From NCBI GenBank assembly GCA_002433895.1, contig DJJA01000003.1, positions 575,745-639,744 of the forward strand: DNA of 64,000 bases, read 5' to 3'. Below the pieces are notes generated by a model. It searched no databases. It saw nothing but the letters and a program-made list of their open reading frames with translations, and was not told where the DNA came from. Each line of letters begins with the position of its first letter. Positions within the stretch are counted from its first letter, which is position 1. Of this stretch, positions 1,952-57,112 are shown in pieces. The stretch is from Candidatus Gottesmanbacteria bacterium UBA6580. Lineage in GTDB: Bacteria; Patescibacteriota; Microgenomatia; UBA10105; UBA927. Both the position numbers and the translations under genes were made by a program.

Positions 1952-3328
1952 ATGGTTACCTTAGAACAAATAGCGAGTTTGTGTAAGCGGCGTGGGTTTG
2001 TCTATCCCACGAGCGATATTTATGGCGGCCTTACCAGCTCGTATGATTATGGCCCCATGGGAGCTGAGTTGCTCCGGAACATCAGAGCGCTATGGTGGAA
2101 AACATTTATTCATGAGCGCATTGATATGGTTGGCTTGGATTCACAAATATTGCTCCACCCGGAAACATGGGTCGCGAGCGGACACGTGGGCTCCTTCAAT
2201 GACCCGCTGGTAGAAGACAGTGTCACCAATAAACGGTACCGTGCCGACCACCTTATCGAAGCCTGGCTTACCGGTCACCCTGACCCGGCTATCACCGTAG
2301 AAGACATGACCATCGAACAAATGGCGGATTTTATTGAGACGCATGGGATCGCAAGTCCCGAGGGTAACCCGTTGTCGAAGCCGAAAAAGTTTAATTTGCT
2401 CTTTGAAACGAAGCTCGGTGTGGTGGAGGGCGAAAAGTCACTGCTCTATATGCGTGGGGAGACGGCTCAGGGGATATTTACTAATTTCCGGAATATTGTA
2501 GATTCCAGCAGAGTGCAGTTGCCGTTTGGAGTAGGTCAGATCGGTAAATCATTCCGTAATGAAATTACGACCGGGCAGTTTATTTTCCGGACGATTGAGT
2601 TAGAACAAGCGGAAATAGAGTACTTTTTTGACCCCAACGAGACCGACTGGCAAACGCTGCTTGATTCGTGGAAAGATGCGATGTGGAGCTTTGTGACGAC
2701 AAAAATGGGAGTATCTCCGGATCACCTGCAGTGGCGGAGGCATACCGACAAAGAGCGGAGCCACTATAGTAAAGATACTTTTGACCTGGATTATCAGTTT
2801 CCTTTTGGGTGGAAAGAATTATGGGGCATAGCGTACCGCACGGATTACGATCTGCGGGCGCAAGCAGAACATTCAGGCGTGGATTTGAGCTTTACCAATC
2901 CGCAAACCGGCAAAAAGATAATCCCGCACGTGATAGAGCCCGCGGTAGGAATTAACCGGTTATTCCTCATGGTGCTTGCGGACGCCTATACGCAGGAAGA
3001 AAAGCGGATCGTACTCAAACTGTCGCCCGCGTTATCACCGATCAAGGTGGCTGTATTTCCGTTGGTTGCCAATAAGCCAGACCTAGTCACGAAAGCACGA
3101 GCTGTCTATGAAGAGCTGAAAAAAACCCTCGTGGTTTCTTGGGACGACCGCGGCAATATCGGAAAGCGGTATTTGGCACAAGATGAGGTGGGCACCCCGT
3201 GGTGCGTCACCGTTGATTATGCTACCCTAGAAGATGGAACAGTAACTGTCCGTGACCGGGACACAACCCAACAGGAGCGGATAAAGGTTGCTGACCTTAC
3301 TGCCTACTTTCAGGCAAAATTACTATAA
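1952..3328 (+). CDS. glyQS: Glycine--tRNA ligase (class II, alpha2 type)
   Basis: 'CKRRGFVYPTSDIYGGL...YDYGPMGAEL' N-terminus and overall length match dimeric GlyRS. GAGGAGG SD lies 8 nt upstream. Confidence 0.85.
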   Translation: MVTLEQIASLCKRRGFVYPTSDIYGGLTSSYDYGPMGAELLRNIRALWWKTFIHERIDMVGLDSQILLHPETWVASGHVGSFNDPLVEDSVTNKRYRADHLIEAWLTGHPDPAITVEDMTIEQMADFIETHGIASPEGNPLSKPKKFNLLFETKLGVVEGEKSLLYMRGETAQGIFTNFRNIVDSSRVQLPFGVGQIGKSFRNEITTGQFIFRTIELEQAEIEYFFDPNETDWQTLLDSWKDAMWSFVTTKMGVSPDHLQWRRHTDKERSHYSKDTFDLDYQFPFGWKELWGIAYRTDYDLRAQAEHSGVDLSFTNPQTGKKIIPHVIEPAVGINRLFLMVLADAYTQEEKRIVLKLSPALSPIKVAVFPLVANKPDLVTKARAVYEELKKTLVVSWDDRGNIGKRYLAQDEVGTPWCVTVDYATLEDGTVTVRDRDTTQQERIKVADLTAYFQAKLL

Positions 3329-3340
3329 GGAGGTATACGT

Positions 3341-3820
3341 ATGAATGTACTCATGAAACACAAAATGAAATTACTGTACGGCGGGCTCGTGGTTTTGTTG
3401 CTCATCACGGGGATTATCGTGTACCGGGCAGTAGCTCCGGCTCCTGATCCAGTACCGGTAGAGGAAGAAGAGATAACCGAATTACTTCCAGAGGCGGATC
3501 CGTCGCTTGTGGTGGCGGCTGCTTTTTCGAAGACGAAAGACAATACGGTTGTTTTGAGTGTTGCTAATCTTGCGTCCAAGTACACCACGGTTGGTTATGA
3601 GCTTACCTACGACAGTCAGGGACTGATAAAAGGCGTGAATTCAGGGAGCAAGCCTGTTGAAGTAGCGGGTCAGGATGAATTTGAGCGAGAAGTGTATTTG
3701 GGAACATGTTCCCGAAATGTCTGTAAGCCGGATTTAGGGGTGAGTAAGGTCTCGATAGTGCTTGAATTTACTGACACTACCGGCAAAAAGAGCCAGTTTA
3801 GCAAAGAATTCGATCTTTAA
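3341..3820 (+). CDS. Hypothetical signal-anchored, Pro/Glu-rich small protein
   Basis: N-terminal TM segment 'LLYGGLVVLLLITGIIVY'. AAGGAGG SD. Confidence 0.5.
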   Translation: MNVLMKHKMKLLYGGLVVLLLITGIIVYRAVAPAPDPVPVEEEEITELLPEADPSLVVAAAFSKTKDNTVVLSVANLASKYTTVGYELTYDSQGLIKGVNSGSKPVEVAGQDEFEREVYLGTCSRNVCKPDLGVSKVSIVLEFTDTTGKKSQFSKEFDL

Positions 3821-4438
3821 TCACCGCGGCAAGCCAACGCTATTCATAATATGCGCTTCAGCGCCGTGTGCAGATGAATACCGCGCGATACTCAGTGATG
3901 TATTGGTAAACCCATATTCATTAACCTGTTCAAGCGGGATATCGAGAAAAACGGCAAAGAAATTCCTGATAAACGATCCGTGGGTAACAATGGCAATGTG
4001 TTTGCCTTCACAGTGCGTGAGCAGGTACCTGATGACCCTTTTTGACCGCGCCGAGACATCGTTAAGACTTTCTCCGTCAGGCGGACGGAACCGGGGATAT
4101 TGCCACATGCGGCCGAGCACTATTTGCGGGTACATGGCGCTTGCTGCTTCATACGATTTTCCTTCAAGAATGCCAAAATTCCGCTCGTGAAGCCCGGTCA
4201 ATTTCTTTAGCGGCGTATTGGCGTGATACCGCTGTATGGCTTGCGCTGTTTGGACGGCGCGTTTAAGCGGAGAAGTGACTACAAGGTCGAGATGGGTTGT
4301 TTTGAGGTAACGAGCAACATTGTCCGCCTGTTGCTTCCCGGCATCGTTAAGCGGGATATCGGAAATTCCCATTAATCGGCCATTTTTGTTCCAGTCTGTT
4401 TGTCCGTGCCGGACAACAAAAAAAGTCGTTGTGCTCAT
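3821..4438 (-). CDS. Histidine phosphatase family protein (phosphoglycerate mutase-like)
   Basis: The 'VVRHGQTDWN' RHG catalytic motif is near the N-terminus. Confidence 0.7.
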   Translation of the reverse strand: MSTTTFFVVRHGQTDWNKNGRLMGISDIPLNDAGKQQADNVARYLKTTHLDLVVTSPLKRAVQTAQAIQRYHANTPLKKLTGLHERNFGILEGKSYEAASAMYPQIVLGRMWQYPRFRPPDGESLNDVSARSKRVIRYLLTHCEGKHIAIVTHGSFIRNFFAVFLDIPLEQVNEYGFTNTSLSIARYSSAHGAEAHIMNSVGLPR

Positions 4439-7882: not shown

Positions 7883-7917
7883 GCGCTGACCACTTTGGGA
7901 CAAAACCTACGGTTTTT
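7883..7917. repeat. 35 bp perfect direct repeat, copy 1 (GCGCTGACCACTTTGGGACAAAACCTACGGTTTTT)
   Basis: Identical 35-mer recurs at 7968-8002 with an 85 bp period. It lies in the ftsI-murE intergenic region and ends in a T-run. Confidence 0.8.
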
Positions 7918-7967: not shown

Positions 7968-8002
7968 GCGCTGACCACTTTGGGACAAAACCTACGGTTT
8001 TT
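7968..8002. repeat. 35 bp perfect direct repeat, copy 2
   Basis: Exact match to 7883-7917. It sits just upstream of a TTGCTC-N18-TATAAT promoter (8031-8060) that abuts the murE ATG. Confidence 0.8.
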
Positions 8003-13731: not shown

Positions 13732-15038
13732 AAAAGGGGCTTATTGTTGTCGTGTTGGCTGCCGGTATCGGGAAGCGGTTTTGGCCATTTACGACCGACA
13801 AAAGCGTATTTCCCGCAGTCGACGAGCCGCTCATTTTTCATAATCTGAAAAAACTTGAAGCTGCCGGGTTTTCCCGTTTTTTGATAATCACCAATCCCGC
13901 AAATGACGCGCTTATTGCATCACGCCCGGTTCCCGTGGGCATTGAGACTGCCACGAGTATTCAAAAAGAACCGGGAGGTATGGCTGACGCATTGCTTTCC
14001 GCACGGCCGCTGCTCGAGGGTCATCCGATACTTGTCGTCAATGCTGAGGATCTCGTTGAGGACACACTCTATAAAGACATCGCTTCCGGTATCCGGAAGA
14101 GCGAGCCGTTTATCGTCGGAAAATATACCGAAAAATACTTTGACGGCGGCTACATTAAGCTTTCACAAAACAGGCTTATGAGCATTGTCGAAAAACCGGG
14201 TGAAGGCCAGGAACCCAGCAAATATATTAATCTTGTGTTCCATTTTTTTCCCGTCGCCGATATATTCCTTGACCGTCTGCGGTTGGTAAAAACTTCCCGT
14301 GATGACCGGTATGAAAAAGCGCTCGATATGTTTGCGAGTGAATTTGCGGTATCAGTCATTTCATATGATGGGCACTGGACCCCGTTTAAGTATCCATGGC
14401 ATGTGCTGGACGCGATGCAGTATTTACTTACCCACTCATTAACGTCCGGAAAGGGAAAGAATGTTGATATACATAACAATGTAAGTTTGGAGGGGACAGT
14501 GCGTATCGGCAATAATGTGAAGATTTTTGAAAATACAAAAATAGTCGGTCCTGTGTATATTGGCGATAACACGATTATCGGCAACAACAACATCATACGG
14601 GATACAGTTATCGGGAATAACTGTGTTACCGGATTTAACACCGACATCACGCGTAGTTATATAGGAGATAACTGTTGGTTTCACAGCAATTACATTGGGG
14701 ACAGCGTACTTGAAGGCGATGTCAGTATGGGATCGGGATCGGTGCTCGCGAATTTACGGTTAGATGAGGCCGAAATTTACTCGGTCATTTCCAACGAAAA
14801 GAAAAATACACAGCGTGCTAAGTTGGGCGCAATGATTGGCCGGAATGTACGGATAGGAGTGAATGCCAGCATTATGCCCGGGGTGAAAATCGGGGCGAAT
14901 TCGTTTGTGGGCGCGGGCGTCGTGTTGGATAAGGATATTCCGGAGGATTCGTTCTGTATGATGCAGCCGGGTTATGTCGTGAAAAAAAATAAAGTGAAAA
15001 TCTCCGGAGACAGAGCCGCGTACAAAGCAAAGTTATAA
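13728..15038 (+). CDS. Bifunctional-looking sugar-phosphate nucleotidyltransferase with C-terminal left-handed beta-helix (GlmU/RmlA-like)
   Basis: 'VVLAAGIGKRFWP' nucleotidyltransferase G-loop at the N-terminus, plus hexapeptide repeats (IGNNVKI, IGDNTIIGNNNII...) in the C-terminal half. ATGA overlap with murA. Confidence 0.65.
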   Translation: MKKGLIVVVLAAGIGKRFWPFTTDKSVFPAVDEPLIFHNLKKLEAAGFSRFLIITNPANDALIASRPVPVGIETATSIQKEPGGMADALLSARPLLEGHPILVVNAEDLVEDTLYKDIASGIRKSEPFIVGKYTEKYFDGGYIKLSQNRLMSIVEKPGEGQEPSKYINLVFHFFPVADIFLDRLRLVKTSRDDRYEKALDMFASEFAVSVISYDGHWTPFKYPWHVLDAMQYLLTHSLTSGKGKNVDIHNNVSLEGTVRIGNNVKIFENTKIVGPVYIGDNTIIGNNNIIRDTVIGNNCVTGFNTDITRSYIGDNCWFHSNYIGDSVLEGDVSMGSGSVLANLRLDEAEIYSVISNEKKNTQRAKLGAMIGRNVRIGVNASIMPGVKIGANSFVGAGVVLDKDIPEDSFCMMQPGYVVKKNKVKISGDRAAYKAKL

Positions 15039-17368: not shown

Positions 17369-18612
17369 GTATGATGAAATACTTCCGTAAGGTTATCTCT
17401 GCCTCTCTTTCCCCGAATACGGAAACTGATGATGTGGCCGCGGCAGTAGCAGCACTTTTTTCTCCCTGGCGATGGCACCAGGGCAGCGACATAAAGGCAG
17501 TCAAGCAATGGTTTACCGGTCATTTCCCCACCAAGCACGTCACACTGTATAACAGTGGCCGGTCAGCGCTCTATGCGATACTGCGGGCGTTCGGCATTGG
17601 TAAAGGAGACGAAGTGATCGTACAGGCATTCACATGTGTTGCGGTGCCCAACAGCGTACTGTGGGCGGGCGCAACACCGGTATACGCCGATATAGACGGG
17701 ACATATAATCTGGATCCTGTTGATCTCGAAAAACACATAACCCCCCGTACGAAAGCGGTTATTGTGCAGAATACCTTCGGTATACCGGCAAATATGGATG
17801 CGTTAGTTACCCTCACGAAAAAATATAAGTTATTGCTTATCGAAGATTGCGCACACGCGCTTGGCGCATTCTATAAAGGAAAGCGGGTGGGATCGTTTGG
17901 CGACGCGGCGTTTTTTAGCTTTGGGCGTGACAAAGTACTTTCCAGCGTGTGGGGTGGGGCAGCGATTATCCATAACGACTGCCGCGTGGTGGATGCCACG
18001 GCAAAAATCCATACATTCCACAGCCGGCTTCTGATGCCCAATGCTTCCTGGATAGTGCAGCAGCTGCTCCATCCTTTGGCGTTCGCGTTTATTATCCCTT
18101 GGTACAATTTGGGGATTGGCAAGCTTCTCCTCGTGTTCCTGCAACGGATGAATATGTTGTCATTTCCGGTATATCCTGAGGAAAAATCCGGTGGTCGGCC
18201 CAAAGGTTTTCCGGCACAATATCCAAATGCACTCGCGAAACTACTCCGGGTGCAGCTCCGGAAACTTGACCGCTATGGAAATATGAGACGGGATATAGCC
18301 CAAATATATGCCAAAAAATTTTCAGATTTGCCGCATAATGTGCCGTATATTCCGGGGTCAGGTTACTTACGGTACCCAGTGTGGGTAGACGCTCCGGAGC
18401 AGTTGCGGCTTAAAGCAAAAAAGCGCGGTATACTATTGGGGAATTGGTATCATAATGTGATTGATCCAATCGGAGTTATACTTGAAAAAGTAGGATACAC
18501 TCCCGGAAGCTGCCCCCGCTCAGAAGAGGCAGCTAAACATCTCCTCAACCTTCCTACCCGTATCACTGCCAGGGAAAGTAGCCAAATACTTGTGTTATTC
18601 CGTACAATATAA
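17365..18612 (+). CDS. DegT/DnrJ/EryC1/StrS-family PLP-dependent sugar aminotransferase
   Basis: 'LYNSGRSALYAIL...DEVIVQAFTCVAV' and 'FSFGRDKVLS' (PLP-lysine region). Confidence 0.7.
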   Translation: MSMMKYFRKVISASLSPNTETDDVAAAVAALFSPWRWHQGSDIKAVKQWFTGHFPTKHVTLYNSGRSALYAILRAFGIGKGDEVIVQAFTCVAVPNSVLWAGATPVYADIDGTYNLDPVDLEKHITPRTKAVIVQNTFGIPANMDALVTLTKKYKLLLIEDCAHALGAFYKGKRVGSFGDAAFFSFGRDKVLSSVWGGAAIIHNDCRVVDATAKIHTFHSRLLMPNASWIVQQLLHPLAFAFIIPWYNLGIGKLLLVFLQRMNMLSFPVYPEEKSGGRPKGFPAQYPNALAKLLRVQLRKLDRYGNMRRDIAQIYAKKFSDLPHNVPYIPGSGYLRYPVWVDAPEQLRLKAKKRGILLGNWYHNVIDPIGVILEKVGYTPGSCPRSEEAAKHLLNLPTRITARESSQILVLFRTI

Positions 18613-27096: not shown

Positions 27097-28281
27097 TTGT
27101 TATCTATGTTGATAAAACCTGATCTCGCGAGATTTGCCAAAATAAAAGTTGTCGGTATCGGCGGCGGCGGCAGCAATGCGGTCAACTCCATGATCATCAA
27201 CAACCAGATCAATGGCGTTGATTTCATTTCGGTCAACACGGATGCGCAGGCGTTGTTGCTTTCCCAAGCGCAGAGCAAAATCCAAATCGGGGAAAATCTT
27301 ACGCGCGGATTGGGAGCCGGTGGCAGTCCTGATGTCGGGCGCCAGGCAGCCGAAGAATCCAGGGAAAAGATAGCAGAATATCTGCGTGACAGCGATATGG
27401 TGTTTTTAACCTGCGGAGAAGGTGGCGGTACGGGAACAGGCGCGACGCCGGTATTTGCTGAAATTGCCAAAGAATTGGGCGCGCTTACCGTCGCGGTGGT
27501 CACCAAGCCATTTCATTTTGAAGGCACGCGCCGTATGGTATCTGCAGAAGAAGGGATCGCAAATCTTAAGGATAAAGTAGATACCCTTATCGTTATCCCC
27601 AATCAGCGGCTACTTGAAGTGATTGATAAAAAAATGACGCTGGTAGAAGCGTTCCGGGTGACTGACTCGGTGCTTGGACAAGGAGTGCAGGGTATATCCG
27701 ATCTTATTACCATGCCGGGACTAATTAACGTCGACTTTGCTGACGTACGGGCGATTATGACCAATGCTGGCAGCGCCCTGATGGGTATCGGTACCGGGGT
27801 AGGTGAGAACAGAGCCGCAACGGCTGCCCGCACCGCAGTAGCATCGCCGCTTTTGGAAACAACGATCGAAGGAGCGAAGGGTGTGCTGTTTAATATCATC
27901 GGAGGTAACGACCTCACTATGGCAGAGGTAGATGAAGCAGCCAAACTGATTTCGTCCGCGGTTGACCCCGATGCCAACATCATATTTGGCGCAATTATCG
28001 ATGAAAAACTGGTCGATCAGATCAAGATTACGGTGATCGCGACCGGATTTGATGAAACTAAAAAACGCCTCCGCGAAATGACCGGACGTCCAGCAGCATC
28101 AACCGATACCCGTTATGGCTATCCGCGGCAGGCTGCATCATTTACGAAACCAGTACAACCATCACCCATCGAACAACCTGTAGCCCAACAGCCACCGGTT
28201 TCGTTTACTCCACCCGCGGAAGAAAATCCGCCGGAAGAAGATGAGTTTGACATCCCCGCATTCCTACGGCAGCGGAGTTAG
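27097..28281 (+). CDS. ftsZ: Cell division GTPase FtsZ
   Basis: '[15 protein letters not shown]' and '[18 protein letters not shown]' tubulin signature. Confidence 0.9.
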
Positions 28282-29860: not shown

Positions 29861-30139
29861 CCTAGGATACTGGCGCACCCCGTTCTTCATTGATTTTGAT
29901 TGTCTCCACTGGTGTATTCAACCTGAAGACTTAAAAACGCATTGATATTTTTGAAGCAATTGGGGAGGGGTTGAGGCAAAAAGATAATCCTGTCCTATAA
30001 ATCCCCGCATTTCTATGGCAGAGGAGTTAAACGAGCACAAACGCCATCTTTGATTTGCTTCGGGTTTGATAACGGGGGTTAGAGCAGCCAAGTCCCAGTT
30101 TTTTGTTATTTGAAATTTGTATGGTAAAATACCGAAATC

Positions 30140-30481: not shown

Positions 30482-30609
30482 TCCAATATCACTATTGTGA
30501 TTTCGGTTGTCGCTTGTTATATTCTTCCTGAAGACTTAATAGATGCATGGTTTGGGAGATTGAACTGTCCTATAAATCCCCGTCGTCTTAAGGCAGCGGA
30601 GTTAACGAT

Positions 30610-44986: not shown

Positions 44987-45301
44987 ATGTTCGCTATTGT
45001 AAGAGTCGGCAATAAACAGTTTAAAGTAGCTCCCAAAGACGTGATTACCGTCGATAACATGGCGGGTAATGTCGGGGACACGGTAGAACTTCCGGATGTA
45101 TTGCTCGTGCAGGGAGAAAAATCGGTAAGCGTTGGAAAACCCTTGGTGAAGGGTGCCAAAGTAACCGCGAAGATCATTGCACACAAAAAAGGTGAAAAAA
45201 TTGAAATCCGCAGATTTAAATCAAAAGTACGGTATCGCCGGGCACGCGGGTTCCGCGCACAGTTGACCAATCTTGAGATCGTGGGTATTACCCAGGCATG
45301 A
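44987..45301 (+). CDS. rplU: 50S ribosomal protein L21
   Basis: 'MFAIVRVGNKQFKV' bL21 N-terminus. TTGCAA-N18-TATAAT promoter lies 8 nt upstream of the ATG. Confidence 0.9.
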   Translation: MFAIVRVGNKQFKVAPKDVITVDNMAGNVGDTVELPDVLLVQGEKSVSVGKPLVKGAKVTAKIIAHKKGEKIEIRRFKSKVRYRRARGFRAQLTNLEIVGITQA

Positions 45302-50927: not shown

Positions 50928-51566
50928 GTGATTTACGAGCGGCAACCTATCGATCGCACCAACCTCACCGGTTTTTTGGGAGAGACAGCAGCATACCGCG
51001 CGATATTTAACTCCGTGCATCCACCGTTACCCGAAGAATTGCACATGCTCCGTGATACCGTCGGGGCGAAGTTTCTTTACCAGCTTGGTCAAATCCATGC
51101 GCCACTTTACGTGGTAAATGATGCATTTGCCATGCCGGTGAGCAATTTCCAGGGAGGTGTGTCACTGTGGAGGCCAAAATACCTCATGTCGTATTTTGTG
51201 AGTATGTTTGATAAAAAGCTCATGGTGATGCAGACATGGCGGGCAGTGCGACCCGAGCGGGTAGGCGTACCGAGGGCTGCACAAATAGATTTTCTGCAGA
51301 TTGCTGATTTACTGACCGGACGAAATAGCCAAAAATTGTATCCACGCAGACAATCGTTGGAGAACTTGGCGTATACGGGTATGCATTCTGAAGGCGCCGC
51401 GTTTTTGGGAAAACTGCGTAGTCTAATCACTTCGATATCAGGCGATTGCCGTGTGTTTCTCGTGCCTGCAGATCAGCAACGGGAGCGCATCGCGCGCATG
51501 GCATTCCGCGACTACCCAAATGTAGAAATACAAGAAGTTTCGGAAAAACGGCAACGCCCCCGTTAG
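50928..51566 (+). CDS. Hypothetical protein
   Basis: 212 aa ORF with no recognised motif. Confidence 0.4.
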   Translation: MIYERQPIDRTNLTGFLGETAAYRAIFNSVHPPLPEELHMLRDTVGAKFLYQLGQIHAPLYVVNDAFAMPVSNFQGGVSLWRPKYLMSYFVSMFDKKLMVMQTWRAVRPERVGVPRAAQIDFLQIADLLTGRNSQKLYPRRQSLENLAYTGMHSEGAAFLGKLRSLITSISGDCRVFLVPADQQRERIARMAFRDYPNVEIQEVSEKRQRPR

Positions 51567-51586
51567 TCTGTACCCCCATCATCTCA

Positions 51587-51607
51587 AGCCCACATCGGGA
51601 GTGTGCT
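51587..51607. repeat. REP-like palindromic hairpin, copy 1 (AGCCCACATCGGGAGTGTGCT, imperfect)
   Basis: Same 21-mer as 52302-52322 with one mismatch. It lies immediately after the transposase stop. Confidence 0.7.
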
Positions 51608-52282
51608 CTAGTTTTGTTCGATGAGCAAGCGCTTTATGATGTGCAGATTGCGTTGATAGTCAGCGCTATCCTTCAAAAAAGTAATATAGTTATGGGGTGT
51701 TTGGAACGATAAAAGAATTTGTTGCGGATCGGTAAATGTTTGCTTTGTTGAAGTGTACTCATTCAGAGAAGACCATTGATAGTTCATAAGTTTATGGAAT
51801 GTTGAAACCACTCCGTTGCTATAGGGATTTAAGTGTATATATCTGGATACGTGGAGAAGCTGTTCATCTGAGGTTATGTGAACGGCTTTGAATTGGCCCT
51901 GAAATAAGGGGCCAACTCTTTTGTAACGGGTATTAAAATATTTTGTATAGCTATCAGAAATCCGTCGGATATACTCCGATACTCCACCATCAATCTCCTG
52001 ACGCAAAAGAAAATGAAAGTGATTGGGCATAAATACATAACTTATAACGGTGACAATTCGCTCGTGAGATTTTAGGCCTTCTAAGTACTCGTGTTTTAGA
52101 TTATTGGTCAGTTGAATATATTTCGAGAATTTAAGACGCGGATTATCATATAAATAATACTCACAAATGTTTTTTAAACGTTCGTAACATCTTTCATCAC
52201 TAAAAATTGAACGTTTTTCTACCCCTCTATTGTAGACGTGGTAATAGTGAGCGTTTATAAATGGTATTAGCCGTTGAGGCAT
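51608..52282 (-). CDS. IS200/IS605-family Y1 (HUH) transposase, REP-associated tyrosine transposase (RAYT)-like
   Basis: 'HYHVYNRGV' and 'MPNHFHFLL' HUH motif, with a downstream Tyr-containing helix 'SRYIHLNPY'. It is flanked on both sides by the same palindromic repeat. AT-rich. Confidence 0.75.
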   Translation of the reverse strand: MPQRLIPFINAHYYHVYNRGVEKRSIFSDERCYERLKNICEYYLYDNPRLKFSKYIQLTNNLKHEYLEGLKSHERIVTVISYVFMPNHFHFLLRQEIDGGVSEYIRRISDSYTKYFNTRYKRVGPLFQGQFKAVHITSDEQLLHVSRYIHLNPYSNGVVSTFHKLMNYQWSSLNEYTSTKQTFTDPQQILLSFQTPHNYITFLKDSADYQRNLHIIKRLLIEQN

Positions 52283-52301
52283 AAATATTTCGCTTTTACT
52301 A

Positions 52302-52322
52302 AGCCCACATCGGGAGTGGGCT
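52302..52322. repeat. REP-like palindromic hairpin, copy 2 (AGCCCAC-ATCGGGA-GTGGGCT)
   Basis: Perfect 7 bp stem with a 7 nt loop, 20 bp upstream of the RAYT start. Confidence 0.75.
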
Positions 52323-52328
52323 TAAAGG

Positions 52329-54311
52329 TTAGTTGTCCCGCAGGATGTCATTATGCTTATGGCTCATGTCGAAGCGGAGTTTGAAGTGTTTTTTAGATAG
52401 ATCATGGCGATCATATTCTTTCCATTTAGATGAGCCGTCCTCAAATAGCTGTACCACGACGATTTTATAAGAATTTTTCCACCACCATTTCTTGTTGGGT
52501 AAGACACTGAGAGTGTAGGCCTCTTTGTGTGGCTCCAGTATGGTAATTTGCCCTTCGGAATCTTCAAACTTATTTCCATCTTTATCGATGAGCGTGGCGC
52601 GCGCGCCATCAACGATAATAAGAAGCGCCGTTATTCCTTTAGCGGGTTTTATTTGCTGGTTATCTTGTTTCATGCGAGTAAGCGGTTGAGGGTGCAAAGA
52701 TCCGTTTATGAAGTCGATAATTGTACGTATTCCAAGCGTGTTGGTGACAAGCTCTGTGTGATCCAATGGAAGTATAAAATTTTGTGCGTCGGGTAGCTGA
52801 CTACTTTCTAAAAGTACGGTTCCATCGCCATCACGAAAAAATTTGTTTTTTGTAGGTTTCCCATCCCACCAATTTCCCAATCGTTGATCTGCACGGTTTG
52901 GTGGTAATACTTCCAGTGAGCTCAATGTCTCATAACCCGTTCCACTAAGGGTTCCGACGGTTGTTCCGTAATAGGGATAAGATAATGAAGTTGGGAGCCA
53001 ATTATTTCTAATTTTCATATCAGAAATAGGCGTTAGCGCACCACTCAGTGACCGTAGATAATCAAAAGTCGGTAGAATGTTTTGTAGGGATAATACAAGA
53101 TTATTTATCATTTCCCGAGCCGACCAACCTTTACGAAGCGAGCACCCGACCTTCATGACGGTAAAACCGAGTCTGATCGCAGCATCATCTGTCCATATTT
53201 CGCCACCTGCCCAGGCAGGATAAGCGAGAACAGAGCCTTTGTGCGGAGATCCTACAGTGAGCAATTTGTTGATGTGACTATTCGTTTGTGAAGATTCCAG
53301 ATAGGCGCGGGCAACTAATCCTCCATAGCTATGCCCAATGACATTAATTAGTTCGTTTTCGTCCGTATTGCGCTGAATATACTCATTTACCTGCGTAGCT
53401 GTCTGAACGGCTGTTTTTCTCCAGTCATAGTAATAGGCTAGAGGCACAAAACCTTCACCTCGGAGGGTATTGATAAGACTTTGGTATACGTCTGCATTGG
53501 CAATTTTCCAGGGGCTCCAACTTTCCGAATAATTGGATGATTTGCAGTTCAGTAACGCATCTTTATTCCAGCTTCCTCCCATGCCGTGAAGTACAAGCAC
53601 CTTTTTGGGTAATTCGGGGGTTGGTGTATTTGTTGGTGTTGGGCTTGGTGTCGGCGTCGATGTTGGAGTGGGTGTAGGCGTCGGAGTTGGTGTCGCTGTA
53701 GGTGTCGGTGTGGGCGTCGAAGTAGGCTCGTAGGTAGAGAGTTCAAAGTTTGCAAGTTCGTAATCACCATTTCCTTGTAATGACACCCATATTCTAGAGA
53801 TATCGAAATTTGCTGATGTTAATAGTGAATGCAGTTCGTTTCCATCCTCATTTACTACTAAATTAGTGTTGCTTAATGGAGATACTAGTATTTTAAAATG
53901 ATGTCTCCCTAAGGTGTGATCCCAATTTACAATTTTTTCTCTTCCAGTTGAGTCGTGAATTTGCATGGATGAATTCCATAGCCCTGCAATTTTCCAGTGT
54001 CCAAAGCTGTCTCCTATTCCTACTCCCCAAGACTGGTTACTAGCTTCTTTGTTTACGATAACGTCAATATCGATTTGAAATGTTTGATTACCATTTATGT
54101 AATAAGAAATTTCGCTCCATGTTGTTGAGTTAGCACCTGTAATGCCATTTGTTGAAGGTAAGGGAGGGGAATCCGTAGTTGGTTTCCAAATGGTACTATA
54201 TCCGCCAAGAAATGTATCTGAAAAAATGAGAGCGGCATTAGCTCTTGTCGGTATAGAAAGAGCTATAAGAACAGCTAAAACTGAACTTAAAACGGGCAGG
54301 ACTTTTTTCAT
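52329..54311 (-). CDS. Secreted LCAT/PGAP1-like alpha/beta-hydrolase (lipase/acyltransferase) with a Thr-Pro-rich linker
   Basis: Signal peptide 'VLAVLIALSIPTRANA', (TP)n linker 'PTSTPTPTPTATPTPTPTPTPTSTPTPSPTPTNTPTP', 'YYYDWRKT' (LCAT-family YDWR) and 'VIGHSYGG' GxSxG. Low-GC gene. Confidence 0.6.
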   Translation of the reverse strand: MKKVLPVLSSVLAVLIALSIPTRANAALIFSDTFLGGYSTIWKPTTDSPPLPSTNGITGANSTTWSEISYYINGNQTFQIDIDVIVNKEASNQSWGVGIGDSFGHWKIAGLWNSSMQIHDSTGREKIVNWDHTLGRHHFKILVSPLSNTNLVVNEDGNELHSLLTSANFDISRIWVSLQGNGDYELANFELSTYEPTSTPTPTPTATPTPTPTPTPTSTPTPSPTPTNTPTPELPKKVLVLHGMGGSWNKDALLNCKSSNYSESWSPWKIANADVYQSLINTLRGEGFVPLAYYYDWRKTAVQTATQVNEYIQRNTDENELINVIGHSYGGLVARAYLESSQTNSHINKLLTVGSPHKGSVLAYPAWAGGEIWTDDAAIRLGFTVMKVGCSLRKGWSAREMINNLVLSLQNILPTFDYLRSLSGALTPISDMKIRNNWLPTSLSYPYYGTTVGTLSGTGYETLSSLEVLPPNRADQRLGNWWDGKPTKNKFFRDGDGTVLLESSQLPDAQNFILPLDHTELVTNTLGIRTIIDFINGSLHPQPLTRMKQDNQQIKPAKGITALLIIVDGARATLIDKDGNKFEDSEGQITILEPHKEAYTLSVLPNKKWWWKNSYKIVVVQLFEDGSSKWKEYDRHDLSKKHFKLRFDMSHKHNDILRDN

Positions 54312-54459
54312 TAGAAGCCCTTAATAAATACTTATAATAAAAACCATACATCAATACATATTATTTGTATGTATGACACCTAACGAGATGGAGTTATGAT
54401 ACACTTACTTGAATTTTACTAACGATTTAATACAAGAATTTATTGATATTTAAAAGTTA

Positions 54460-55365
54460 ATGAAAGCATTTGCTTGTCCGGTTTGTGTTAGTCAAGTTAA
54501 CAACCCCTTTTTATTGGTTAAGGGTTTTTCGACTTATAAATGTAGTAAGTGTAGTTTTGTTTATATTTACCCAAGACCTTCGCAAATGTCCCTGAAGAAG
54601 TATTACTCAAATTTTGATTATAAAAATATCCCTTTCGTAGAGAAAAGAATTAAGGAAGACTCACAAATTAGCCTAGGTTTTATCAATCCCTATAAAGGCT
54701 CTAGAAATACGTTATTAGACTTGGGGTGTGGAAGGGGGTATTTTTTATTGGAGGCAAAGTCAAAAGGCTGGAAAGTTAAAGGTGTTGATGTATCTTTTAA
54801 TGAAGTTGAATACGCTACAAAAAGACTACACCTAAATGTTGTTAGGTCAGATATTATAAAATATAAAGATATAAACAAGTACGATTTGATCACTCTTAGT
54901 CAGGTGATTGAGCATATTAGAAATCCTAATGAGCTTATAAAAAAAACAAAATCATTACTTGCTAAAAATGGTTTGTTATATATCGCAACCCCCAATATTA
55001 ACAGTGCATCAGCCATGATTCATGGTATAAATTTTGAACATTTTATTCCGCCAGAGCATCTTAATTACTTCAACAATCAATCGTTAAAATATTTGTTGGA
55101 AGCTAATGGTTTCCGGATACTTAGATGGGAAACATGGGGATATCCAGAAAACATTTCTGGTATAGTTAAGCGGTTGTTAAAGCGTAACGTCAAAAATAGT
55201 CCAAAAGTAGATAATTTAAACAAAGTAAACGAAGATCAAGTATTTATAAGCATGAAGAATGTTAAGAAATTTGTATTCGATAAGGTTTTTTGTACTTTGA
55301 CTTATAAATCTTTAGATATATTTAACTTGGGTATTAATCTACATATCCTTGCTCAAAAGATATAA
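54460..55365 (+). CDS. Class I SAM-dependent methyltransferase with an N-terminal Cys4 zinc-ribbon
   Basis: 'CPVC...CSKC' followed by 'LLDLGCGRGYF' motif I. Very AT-rich. Confidence 0.65.
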   Translation: MKAFACPVCVSQVNNPFLLVKGFSTYKCSKCSFVYIYPRPSQMSLKKYYSNFDYKNIPFVEKRIKEDSQISLGFINPYKGSRNTLLDLGCGRGYFLLEAKSKGWKVKGVDVSFNEVEYATKRLHLNVVRSDIIKYKDINKYDLITLSQVIEHIRNPNELIKKTKSLLAKNGLLYIATPNINSASAMIHGINFEHFIPPEHLNYFNNQSLKYLLEANGFRILRWETWGYPENISGIVKRLLKRNVKNSPKVDNLNKVNEDQVFISMKNVKKFVFDKVFCTLTYKSLDIFNLGINLHILAQKI

Positions 55366-55367
55366 TT

Positions 55368-56078
55368 ATGCTCTCTGTTCTTATTATTTGTAGGAAAATT
55401 GATGATTTGTTGCTTAAGACAATCAAGAGTGTTGAACCACTACAGCCTCAGGTAATTGTCGATGTTTCCGTCGATCAAAAAAAGGCACTCGGGAAAAGGA
55501 AAAACGGTTTAATCAAAAACGCACCTTCCGAATGGGTTTTAGTGCTTGATACCGACGAAGTTGTTTCAAAATCTCTGCTTCATGAGGTAGGTGAAATTGT
55601 CCGAAAAAATTCTTCTGAATTTCATGGTTACCAGATACCATATCAAAATTATGCCTTTGGTAAAGCGCTGGGTTACGGAGGAGAGAAGTATGGCAAAGTC
55701 AGATTGTTTCGAAAGCGATATGGTCATGTAACACAGCTGCCAATTCATGAAGAAGTCGTCATTGACGGCAAAATCGGCAAGCTAAAAGGAGTTATCCATC
55801 ACTACTCCTATGTTTCGCTGCCGCAAGTGCTGCGGAAGTTCACGAAATACGCGTGGCAGATGGCGGGCGAAAAACAGAAAGCCCATGAGCAAGTGACCAT
55901 CAAAAAATTATTCCTCTATGGCTTGCACATGGTGTGGGCGCGCGCGATTAAAGATCACGGATGGCGTGATGGCTGGCAGGGGGTAGTGCTTGCGCTATGC
56001 TTCGGGTACATGGAAACACTCATGTATTGGATGTTGATTGTACGAAACCTGATCCCGCCCGCCACAAAACAATCGTGA
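55368..56078 (+). CDS. Glycosyltransferase family 2 (small, Kdo/core-type)
   Basis: 'VLVLDTDEVV' DxD motif and about 236 aa. Confidence 0.55.
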   Translation: MLSVLIICRKIDDLLLKTIKSVEPLQPQVIVDVSVDQKKALGKRKNGLIKNAPSEWVLVLDTDEVVSKSLLHEVGEIVRKNSSEFHGYQIPYQNYAFGKALGYGGEKYGKVRLFRKRYGHVTQLPIHEEVVIDGKIGKLKGVIHHYSYVSLPQVLRKFTKYAWQMAGEKQKAHEQVTIKKLFLYGLHMVWARAIKDHGWRDGWQGVVLALCFGYMETLMYWMLIVRNLIPPATKQS

Positions 56079-57112
56079 ACCAAAAACGGATAGCATTTAT
56101 AGACATCGCCCGTGGGTTCGCCATTCTCGCCGTTATCGCCGTGCATACCGGATTTCTCCCTCTCCAACACCAACTCCTCCCGCTAATCACTCCCTGGATG
56201 CTTCCAGTATTTGCGGTGTTGCACGGGTGGCTTGCGAAAGACACGCACTCATTTGCCGACGTGGCCGTTAAGAGATTACGGTCGCTTATTGTTCCATACT
56301 GTATCGCTGGTTTTGTTTCTTATGCGTTATGGCTAGGGCTCCGTTGGTATGCAGTGGATACGGTGCTGTTTGTGCCATGGGACATGGCCTTGCGTCAATT
56401 ATTTTTGGGGACAAGCCTGGTATTTAATGGCCCGCTATGGTTCTTGCCTGCCTTTTTTATCGCCACAGTAATATTTGAAATCAACAGAGCAACCTTTACG
56501 AAGGGTGGCATCGCGAAGGCATTACTTTTAGCAGCAACATTGACGTTTTTTTCATTTACAGTAAACCCTACGAAAAGCCATGTGGTGTTTTCATACGACC
56601 TGTCGTTGCTGTTGGCATCTTTCATGCTTGTGGGTGAACGGTTACGAGCGGTACATTGGGAGAAAATACAAATGGGCACCTGGATTGCCGTTGGAGTTGG
56701 TTTTGTGGCGTTGAGTATTTTTAATGGCACCATCGATATGTTTGGCCGTGAGTTTGGTAATCCATGGCTCTATTTACTGTCAGCCCACATCGGGAGTGGG
56801 CTTGTAATCGGGGTGGCGCAGCGTATGGCTGAAAGGAAGTGGTGGGTCACTGGGGCGCTGGCGGTGATAGGGCGGCACTCGCTTCTTGTTTTGGTGACAC
56901 ATTGGCCGATGATGCAGTGGCTGACGTTCGTCCTGACCATCTTGGGTCTGGTGCCTGTGCTGGGAGGCACTCCTACGTATATGTCATTTTCGTATGATCA
57001 TCCGAGCGCCATCGTGTTTACCCTTATCGAGCTGCCCCTGTTGGCGCTCTATATGGCCGTACCCCTTCTCATATTACCCGTAGCGGGTAGGCTCCGCCGT
57101 GCATATTTGTAG
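56075..57112 (+). CDS. Acyltransferase family 3 (OatA-like) integral membrane protein
   Basis: 'RIAFIDIARGFAILAV' N-terminal motif and roughly 10 TM helices. GTG 56075 gives a GTGA overlap with the upstream GT2 stop. A REP copy lies inside it at 56782-56802. Confidence 0.6.
   Translation: MNQKRIAFIDIARGFAILAVIAVHTGFLPLQHQLLPLITPWMLPVFAVLHGWLAKDTHSFADVAVKRLRSLIVPYCIAGFVSYALWLGLRWYAVDTVLFVPWDMALRQLFLGTSLVFNGPLWFLPAFFIATVIFEINRATFTKGGIAKALLLAATLTFFSFTVNPTKSHVVFSYDLSLLLASFMLVGERLRAVHWEKIQMGTWIAVGVGFVALSIFNGTIDMFGREFGNPWLYLLSAHIGSGLVIGVAQRMAERKWWVTGALAVIGRHSLLVLVTHWPMMQWLTFVLTILGLVPVLGGTPTYMSFSYDHPSAIVFTLIELPLLALYMAVPLLILPVAGRLRRAYL
56782..56802. repeat. REP-like palindromic hairpin, copy 3, embedded in frame in the acyltransferase CDS
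   Basis: Exact AGCCCACATCGGGAGTGGGCT, translating as 'SAHIGSGL' within ORF 56075-57112. Confidence 0.75.

Follow-up and report, generated by a model that had tools for sequence, protein, structure and literature searches.

Class 2 Y1 enzymes, which carry a Y---NP motif, are already known from many phyla and are the best-documented domesticated transposases. Patescibacteria have small genomes that contain few mobile elements. Subclass 2.1 of Quentin et al. is recognized by the motifs NH[YF]H, FQ and Y[IV]HLNP and an SS tail, with a median length of 238 amino acids (Table 1, PMC6006769), and comprises group 1 of Bertels et al. (PMC5581495) and most of the TIRYT proteins of Di Nocera et al. (PMC3733652). 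Subclass 2.1 and the TIRYT proteins are listed in the literature as being without canonical REPs (PMC6006769, PMC3733652), and no REP-like structures were found for subclass 2.1 by Quentin et al. (PMC6006769). The RAYTs were described as having low copy numbers, vertical transmission and a housekeeping-like behaviour (PMC5581495).

Here, we examined a Y1 gene and its flanking repeats in a 64-kb stretch of DNA from a Patescibacteria genome, referred to as the window, and in related loci, which are designated by L numbers. The features of the module, and a third copy of its repeat, are as follows.

51608 to 52282, minus strand: Y1 HUH tyrosine transposase-like gene of the RAYT/TIRYT type, 224 amino acids (from Pfam, NCBIfam, family alignment A1, AF2 and Foldseek)
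51587 to 51607, no strand assigned: hp1, the downstream flanking hairpin AGCCCAC-ATCGGGA-GTGTGCT, with one arm mismatched; the perfect form is found at the same place in L002 and L003
52300 to 52324 (core 52302 to 52322), no strand assigned: hp2, the upstream flanking hairpin, with a perfect stem of 9 bp
56782 to 56802, plus strand: hp3, a third exact copy of the 21-mer, in frame in an Acyl_transf_3 gene, where it encodes (S)AHIGSG(L)

The locus is likely to represent a REPtron- or TIRtron-like module, that is, a single-copy, vertically inherited class 2 Y1 HUH gene with one cognate short palindrome on each side. Judging from its sequence, the enzyme would be of the RAYT/TIRYT type and closest to subclass 2.1 of Quentin and group 1 of Bertels.

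The first-pass annotation had described a minus-strand Y1 protein of 224 amino acids with a HUH motif and a tyrosine-containing helix, all of which were recovered. The ORF was intact as a HUH/Y1 enzyme gene with the motifs AHYYHVYNRGV, FMPNHFHFLL and HVSRYIHLNPY; the HUH motif residues were H88 and H90 (PNHFH), and the putative catalytic Tyr148 was located within YIHLNP, in a predicted helix (139 to 155) of an AF2 model with a pLDDT of 92.3. The first motif had been quoted as HYHVYNRGV, with one Y dropped. Further motifs were FQGQF and WSS, and the residues N18-R19-G20, H88, H90 and R147-Y148-I149-H150-L151-N152-P153 were invariant across the alignment of 31 homologues. The C-terminus of the model consisted of one long helix (196 to 222).

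The protein scored 36.6 bits to the Pfam Y1_Tnp domain (PF01797), above the gathering cut-off of 23. It scored 49.2 bits to the NCBIfam model REP_Tyr_transpos, below the equivalog cut-off of 80, and gave no match to the NCBIfam model transpos_IS200 (NF033573) at E ≤ 1. All 31 aligned family members matched REP_Tyr_transpos, whereas the IS200 model gave weak matches in just 3 of the 31, at 0.0086 or worse. A search of solved structures with the family profile identified E. coli TnpA_REP (4er8) as the best match (6e-5), covering both the HUH and the Y motifs, whereas the match to IS200-type TnpA was weaker (7e-3) and covered the HUH region alone; no match was obtained when the solved structures were searched with the single sequence, 4er8 being reached by the family profile only. 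The top Foldseek match of the AF2 model was also 4er8 (E 2e-7, TMt 0.72), ahead of the IS608 and ISDra2 TnpA structures (about 6e-5 to 1e-4). The Y---Q tyrosine motif of class 1 was absent, and YIHLNP was found instead. The sequence and the model thus support an assignment to class 2 (Y---NP), the REP-associated type, rather than to the IS200 TnpA proteins. The "REP-associated type" proposed previously for the enzyme is borne out by YIHLNP, by 4er8 as the best match in both profile and fold, and by the unmatched IS200 model. The resemblance to the REPtron of E. coli (TnpA_REP, 4ER8, REP/BIME) lies in this match and in the Y---NP motif, although the identity to E. coli TnpA_REP is only 16% and the score is below the equivalog cut-off.

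In a motif-level comparison with Table 1 of Quentin et al. (PMC6006769), NHFH, FQ, YIHLNP and WSS and the length of 224 amino acids fit the signature of subclass 2.1. The TIRtron/TIRYT systems (PMC3733652; subclass 2.1, PMC6006769; RAYT group 1, PMC5581495) share with the module the signature NH[YF]H / FQ / Y[IV]HLNP / SS, a length near 230 amino acids, a low copy number with divergent paralogues, and a pair of repeats flanking the gene; some of the described TIRs are self-complementary, and some occur in small families. They differ in that their flanks are long TIRs, whereas those in the window are short hairpins. The module also lacks a C-terminal HTH detectable with Pfam and the TIRYT motif GGGGWSAS, which was not present near the Y1 gene, the nearest sites being at 45074 and 57469. 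Furthermore, those studies hardly covered Patescibacteria, the phylum of the host.

The 21-mer AGCCCACATCGGGAGTG(G/T)GCT brackets the Y1 gene at 51587-51607 and 52302-52322, as had been reported in the first-pass annotation, and a third copy was found at 56782-56802, with all three in one orientation. No match was found in any of 100 dinucleotide shuffles (mean 0.00). Each flanking repeat had been described as a 7-bp stem with a 7-nt loop, which holds for the arrangement as stated, but a C/T mismatch leaves 6 of 7 pairs in hp1, and the stem of hp2 is 9 bp long (TAAGCCCAC/GTGGGCTTA, 52300-52324). The single-stranded DNA fold of hp1 (-2.1 kcal/mol, z 0.09) was no better than that of shuffled sequences, whereas hp2 folded at -9.4 kcal/mol (z -4.3), and hp3 was of moderate stability (-7.1 kcal/mol, z -3.2). 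About 30 perfect 7-bp hairpins were counted in the window, which is about the chance frequency, and the signal therefore lies in the repetition of this one hairpin. A relaxed stem search of the window identified nothing convincing beyond the three copies of the 21-mer. A hairpin at 14604-14624 with the same ATCGGGA loop was dismissed as a coincidence due to Ile-Gly codons in a hexapeptide-repeat gene.

The downstream copy, hp1, is immediately adjacent to the Y1 stop codon (TAG) and is located 20 nt past the stop codon of a convergent gene for a protein of 212 amino acids. The core of hp2 is located 19 nt upstream of the Y1 start codon (17 nt for the extended stem) and 6 nt past the stop codon of a co-oriented lipase-like gene (4 nt for the extended stem). 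The 5' flanks of the three copies read CTCA, ACTA and GTC on the plus strand and CTAG, TTTA and TACA on the minus strand. A GT[AG]G foot was absent from all three copies, and the GTAG-like tetranucleotide that the first-pass annotation had named as a feature to look for 5' of the hairpins was accordingly not found at the copies in the window. In lacking the GTAG guide tetranucleotide and in having a perfect stem of 7 to 9 bp without a bulge, the hairpins in the window differ from those of the REPtron.

REP/RAYT systems had been considered to belong mainly to Proteobacteria, and an occurrence in this genome to be unusual. This did not hold: a search for homologues of the protein returned 7678, and among the 120 listed, the few source names were all Patescibacteria/CPR except one (Armatimonadetes). 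The best homologue apart from the strains with the same locus was 57% identical, among the proteins scored. To compare the flanks, 80 homologous loci were taken from species-representative genomes, of which 72 were testable for the 200 nt on either side of the gene. The same perfect hairpin was present in both flanks of the Y1 gene at 41 of the 72 Patescibacteria loci, as compared to 3 of 679 ORFs taken from these loci as controls, and shared flanking hairpins were thus about 130 times more common at Y1 genes. The upstream copy was typically located about 40 nt from the start codon, and the downstream copy 0 to 30 nt past the stop codon.

The sequence of the hairpin varied from genome to genome, tracking the Y1 lineage. 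The hairpins of the closest relatives were homologous to that of the window, with compensatory changes in the arms, as seen on the gene-sense strand:

Window: AGCCCAC-TCCCGAT-GTGGGCT
L093: AGCTTTACAC-TCCCGAA-GTGTAAAGCT
L092: CTTCACAC-TTCCGAT-GTGTGAA
L089 and L090: CTTTACAC-ATCCGAT-GTGTAAAG

The 23-nt hairpin was identical in L089 and L090, despite a protein identity of 74%. No fixed flanking motif was found across 47 relatives, while an outer stem of AGC...GCT or TAGCYT recurred in many of them. We also noted asymmetric flanking units in direct orientation in many relatives, a geometry that resembles IS200 elements and not inverted REPs. These comparisons support the interpretation that the two hairpins in the window are cognate flanking repeats of the Y1 enzyme, in an arrangement that recurs throughout the family with lineage-specific hairpins. 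The earlier description of "REPs flanking their RAYT" can be retained for the cognate palindromes on both sides of the gene (41/72 vs. 3/679), but the GTAG foot of a REP is missing.

It is extremely improbable that the hairpins are ordinary terminators or mRNA-stabilizing stem-loops of the neighbouring genes that are functionally unrelated to the Y1 protein. Their positions would suit such a role, since hp1 is situated where two genes converge, with TAGTTTTGTT after it, and hp2 is found 6 nt past the stop codon of the lipase-like gene. However, a terminator scan called neither hairpin, the excess at Y1 genes over control ORFs is about 130-fold, the hairpin follows the Y1 lineage and not the neighbouring genes, and an exact copy (hp3) is found well inside a coding sequence.

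The cognate hairpin was also observed inside the Y1 coding sequence in nine loci (L042, L058, L060, L063, L065, L066, L071, L074 and L076), at two recurrent positions relative to the start codon (about +145 to +180 nt and +450 to +505 nt). The proteins in these loci were 34% to 37% identical to the protein in the window, and several of the records were labelled Saccharibacteria. REPs inside tnpA_REP genes have been described for subclass 2.4, which the in-gene hairpins of these distant homologues recall.

The number of copies bears on whether this is a genuine high-copy REP/RAYT system, in which the genome would contain many intergenic REPs, dispersed and mobilized by the enzyme, with the 21-mer among them. 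All three copies in the 64-kb window are within 5.2 kb, and the sole extra copy is in coding sequence; the REPtron has hundreds of copies. The 21-mer gave no matches in genome contigs or viral contigs and one in metagenome contigs, none of which included the genome of the window. The single match (L001) belonged to an unrelated organism, where it shortly precedes a cheR-cheB-cheY-cheD cluster, and was rejected as a chance match.

In the relatives, at least one distal extra copy of the hairpin was found in 12 of 46 loci, amounting to 20 copies in 669 kb, or about 1 per 33 kb near the Y1 gene, and 19 of the 20 were intergenic. An element of about 106 nt with two hairpins, similar to a REPIN, occurred five times within 6 kb of intergenic DNA around the Y1 gene in L022:

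L022, 24-888, 3343-3448, 4277-4382 and 5515-5620: two-hairpin element, with two cognate hairpins 61 to 71 nt apart and inverted

As in REPINs (PMC3116915), the paired inverted hairpins of this relative are about 60 to 70 nt apart and repeated in intergenic DNA near the Y1 gene, whereas those in the window are single, with no doublets. The distal copies in 12 of 46 loci and the elements in L022 indicate that limited dispersal of the hairpin occurs in this Y1 family.

These dispersed and mostly intergenic copies, together with a RAYT-type enzyme and palindromes on either side, are what a high-copy REP/RAYT system would show. We nevertheless regard this explanation as rather unlikely for the window, given the three clustered copies, the missing GTAG foot, a subclass 2.1 signature that belongs to the group reported to be without REPs (PMC6006769), and the presence of just the two flanking copies in most of the 20-kb homologous loci. 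In the genome of the window, the hairpin appears to be a low-copy element, with two flanking copies and one in a nearby gene, and not a high-copy REP family.

The reading as a module with a vertically inherited gene was examined from the neighbourhood. In L089 and L090, the Y1 gene was present at one shared locus (Maf..NDK), and the identity between the two Y1 proteins (74%) was in the range of that of the neighbours, NDK (74%), Maf (67%) and MreB (78%). In the window, L093 and L092, the Y1 gene was located directly downstream of the gene for the lipase-like alpha/beta-hydrolase, which was 63% (L093) and 57% (L092) identical to that of the window. In L085 and L086, the lipase-like gene was more similar to that of the window (81% and 74%), but the Y1 gene was absent, and in L086 the whole unit was cleanly missing, with 73 nt in place of positions 51541-52366 of the window. 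The absence from L085 and L086 could suggest a recent insertion in the lineage of the window, which was rejected in view of the presence of the Y1 gene at this site in the more distant L093 and L092. We favour an ancestral presence followed by two losses, since this is more parsimonious than three gains at an identical site. Remnants of the hairpin at the deletion junctions in L085 and L086 were not significant, as 191 and 45 of 2000 shuffled sequences, respectively, scored at least as high.

There was no second copy of the Y1 gene in the 64-kb window, and the Y1 paralogues within one MAG were 52% to 66% identical, which is not IS-like. The Y1 gene is thus single-copy in the window, has kept its position across relatives, is inherited vertically and diverges as fast as the genes around it. 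A single-copy gene that is bracketed by cognate palindromes and inherited vertically is also what characterizes the REPtron.

With the IS200/IS605 TnpA elements (IS608, ISDra2), the module shares the HUH/Y1 fold, the hairpins just inside both ends, a unit of about 0.7 kb and the direct orientation of the ends. It is nonetheless unlikely that the 736 bp form an autonomous insertion sequence of the IS200 kind, which would excise and insert as single-stranded DNA and have the hairpins as its subterminal left and right ends. The unit is compact, with the hairpins close up to the gene, direct orientation predominates among the longer flanking repeats in the relatives and is also seen in the window, and the whole unit is cleanly missing from L086, but the enzyme has Y---NP and not the Y---Q of IS200, the IS200 NCBIfam model was unmatched, and tnpB is lacking. 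Nor is the unit multi-copy within the window, and neither the window nor the protein candidates that were scored contained a near-identical second copy. The position of the module is stable across a genera-level divergence and is kept where the lipase-like neighbour is only 57% to 63% identical, which fits an ancestral presence and a loss in L085 and L086, and the Y1 gene diverges like its housekeeping neighbours.

The lipase-like protein (52329-54311, minus strand, 660 amino acids) has matches to PGAP1, LCAT and Palm_thioest, a hydrophobic, putatively signal-peptide-like N-terminus and a long Pro/Thr linker. In three lineages, namely the window, L093 and L092, its gene is conserved as the neighbour upstream of the Y1 gene. 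Together with genes for a methyltransferase and a protein of 236 amino acids, it makes up a low-GC block at 52-56 kb. The first-pass annotation had the Y1 element mark the start of this block, which is correct as a position but not as anything more, since the lipase-methyltransferase-acyltransferase block was present in the same order in L085 and L086, which lack the Y1 gene; the module therefore did not bring in the low-GC block. In L084, a segment of 927 bp (3008-3934) with a different methyltransferase of 282 amino acids was found in place of positions 51577-55354 of the window, which comprise the Y1 module together with the genes for the lipase-like protein and a methyltransferase of 301 amino acids. 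The flanking DNA was 96.6% to 98.6% identical. The left breakpoint of this swap was 10 nt before hp1.

Two other repeats were noted elsewhere in the window. A 35-nt exact direct repeat, GCGCTGACCACTTTGGGACAAAACCTACGGTTTTT, was found at 7883-7917 and 7968-8002, 85 nt apart, and each copy ends in a T-run. A 41-nt motif (…ATCCCCGCATTTCTATGGCAGAGGAGTTAA) was present three times (28241-28281, 29990-30030 and 30565-30605), where the GC content of the window's first half is lowest. Small ORFs follow at least copies two and three, and the motif might act as a common promoter or leader.

Changes at the hairpins themselves were seen in a sister strain, which was represented by two independent assemblies (L002 and L003) and in which the Y1 gene differed from that of the window at 4 of 675 nt (99.4% identity). 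At the upstream hairpin (2221-2241 in L002 and 35-55 in L003, corresponding to 52302-52322 in the window), the 7-nt loop was inverted and the 3' flank was changed (TAG vs. CAAG), while the downstream hairpin was in the perfect form. As a consequence of the loop inversion, the flanking hairpins are mutually inverted in L002 and L003 but direct in the window, a further difference from the REPtron. Perfect palindromes are known to undergo loop inversion, for which the Y1 enzyme is not necessarily needed.

The third copy, hp3, is located 4.5 kb from the Y1 gene within the Acyl_transf_3 gene (56075-57112, with the true start at the GTG codon at 56075). It was considered as an in-frame REP insertion, which was ruled out: 13 acyltransferase homologues aligned across hp3 without an indel, and A263 and G266 were invariant. 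For the same reasons, we take hp3 to be native coding sequence. The 21-mer was also matched to different extents in related loci without the Y1 gene:

L084, acyltransferase 98% identical in amino acid sequence, Y1 gene absent at the locus: 21 of 21 positions of the 21-mer
L085, acyltransferase 74% identical, Y1 gene absent at the locus: 20 of 21 positions
L086, acyltransferase 67% identical, Y1 gene absent at the locus: 12 of 21 positions, no hairpin

It was also noted that hp2 and hp3 have TTTACT in common, 1 to 3 nt upstream. The sequences suggest a link between hp3 and the Y1 module: the exact identity over 21 nt with the flanks of the Y1 gene is not due to chance and therefore points to a copying event between the two places. 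Judging from the distribution in the loci above, this event must have occurred, in either direction, no later than in the ancestor shared by the window and L085.

A second case within a housekeeping coding sequence was observed in L016, where a cognate hairpin with an inverted loop was present at position 17841 in a gene for an RsmI-like protein (ORF 17395-18066, Pfam TP_methylase), 7.7 kb from the Y1 gene. One might imagine a vertically inherited, Patescibacteria-wide system for editing single-stranded DNA, which would write the hairpin into host sequences, or capture it from them, with the length unchanged, as in hp3 and the RsmI-like gene of L016. By way of such in-gene sites, it might remodel the adjacent strain-variable surface-glycan cassette. 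We consider this scenario highly doubtful.

For the single-copy module with its cognate palindromes, a mechanism can be outlined on the model of E. coli TnpA_REP and IS608 TnpA. The Y1 protein would bind the hairpin in single-stranded DNA, for example at the replication fork, and cleavage next to the hairpin would be carried out by Tyr148 and a metal bound by the HUH motif, possibly with rejoining of the strands. In the same way, the co-evolution of protein and hairpin would be maintained, and copies of the hairpin may be spread or rearranged now and then.

The locus is best filed as a module of a known kind that is common in Patescibacteria, where the enzyme in the window represents a Patescibacteria-wide branch closest to subclass 2.1. 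In the window and the 80 related loci, an enzyme similar to subclass 2.1 is regularly bracketed by a hairpin that co-evolves with it, and is inherited like a housekeeping gene in Patescibacteria. In the literature, subclass 2.1 had been described as being without hairpin partners. In addition, part of a conserved host gene has exactly the sequence of the cognate hairpin here, and the module offers a compact, sequence-defined pair of protein and DNA for biochemical work.
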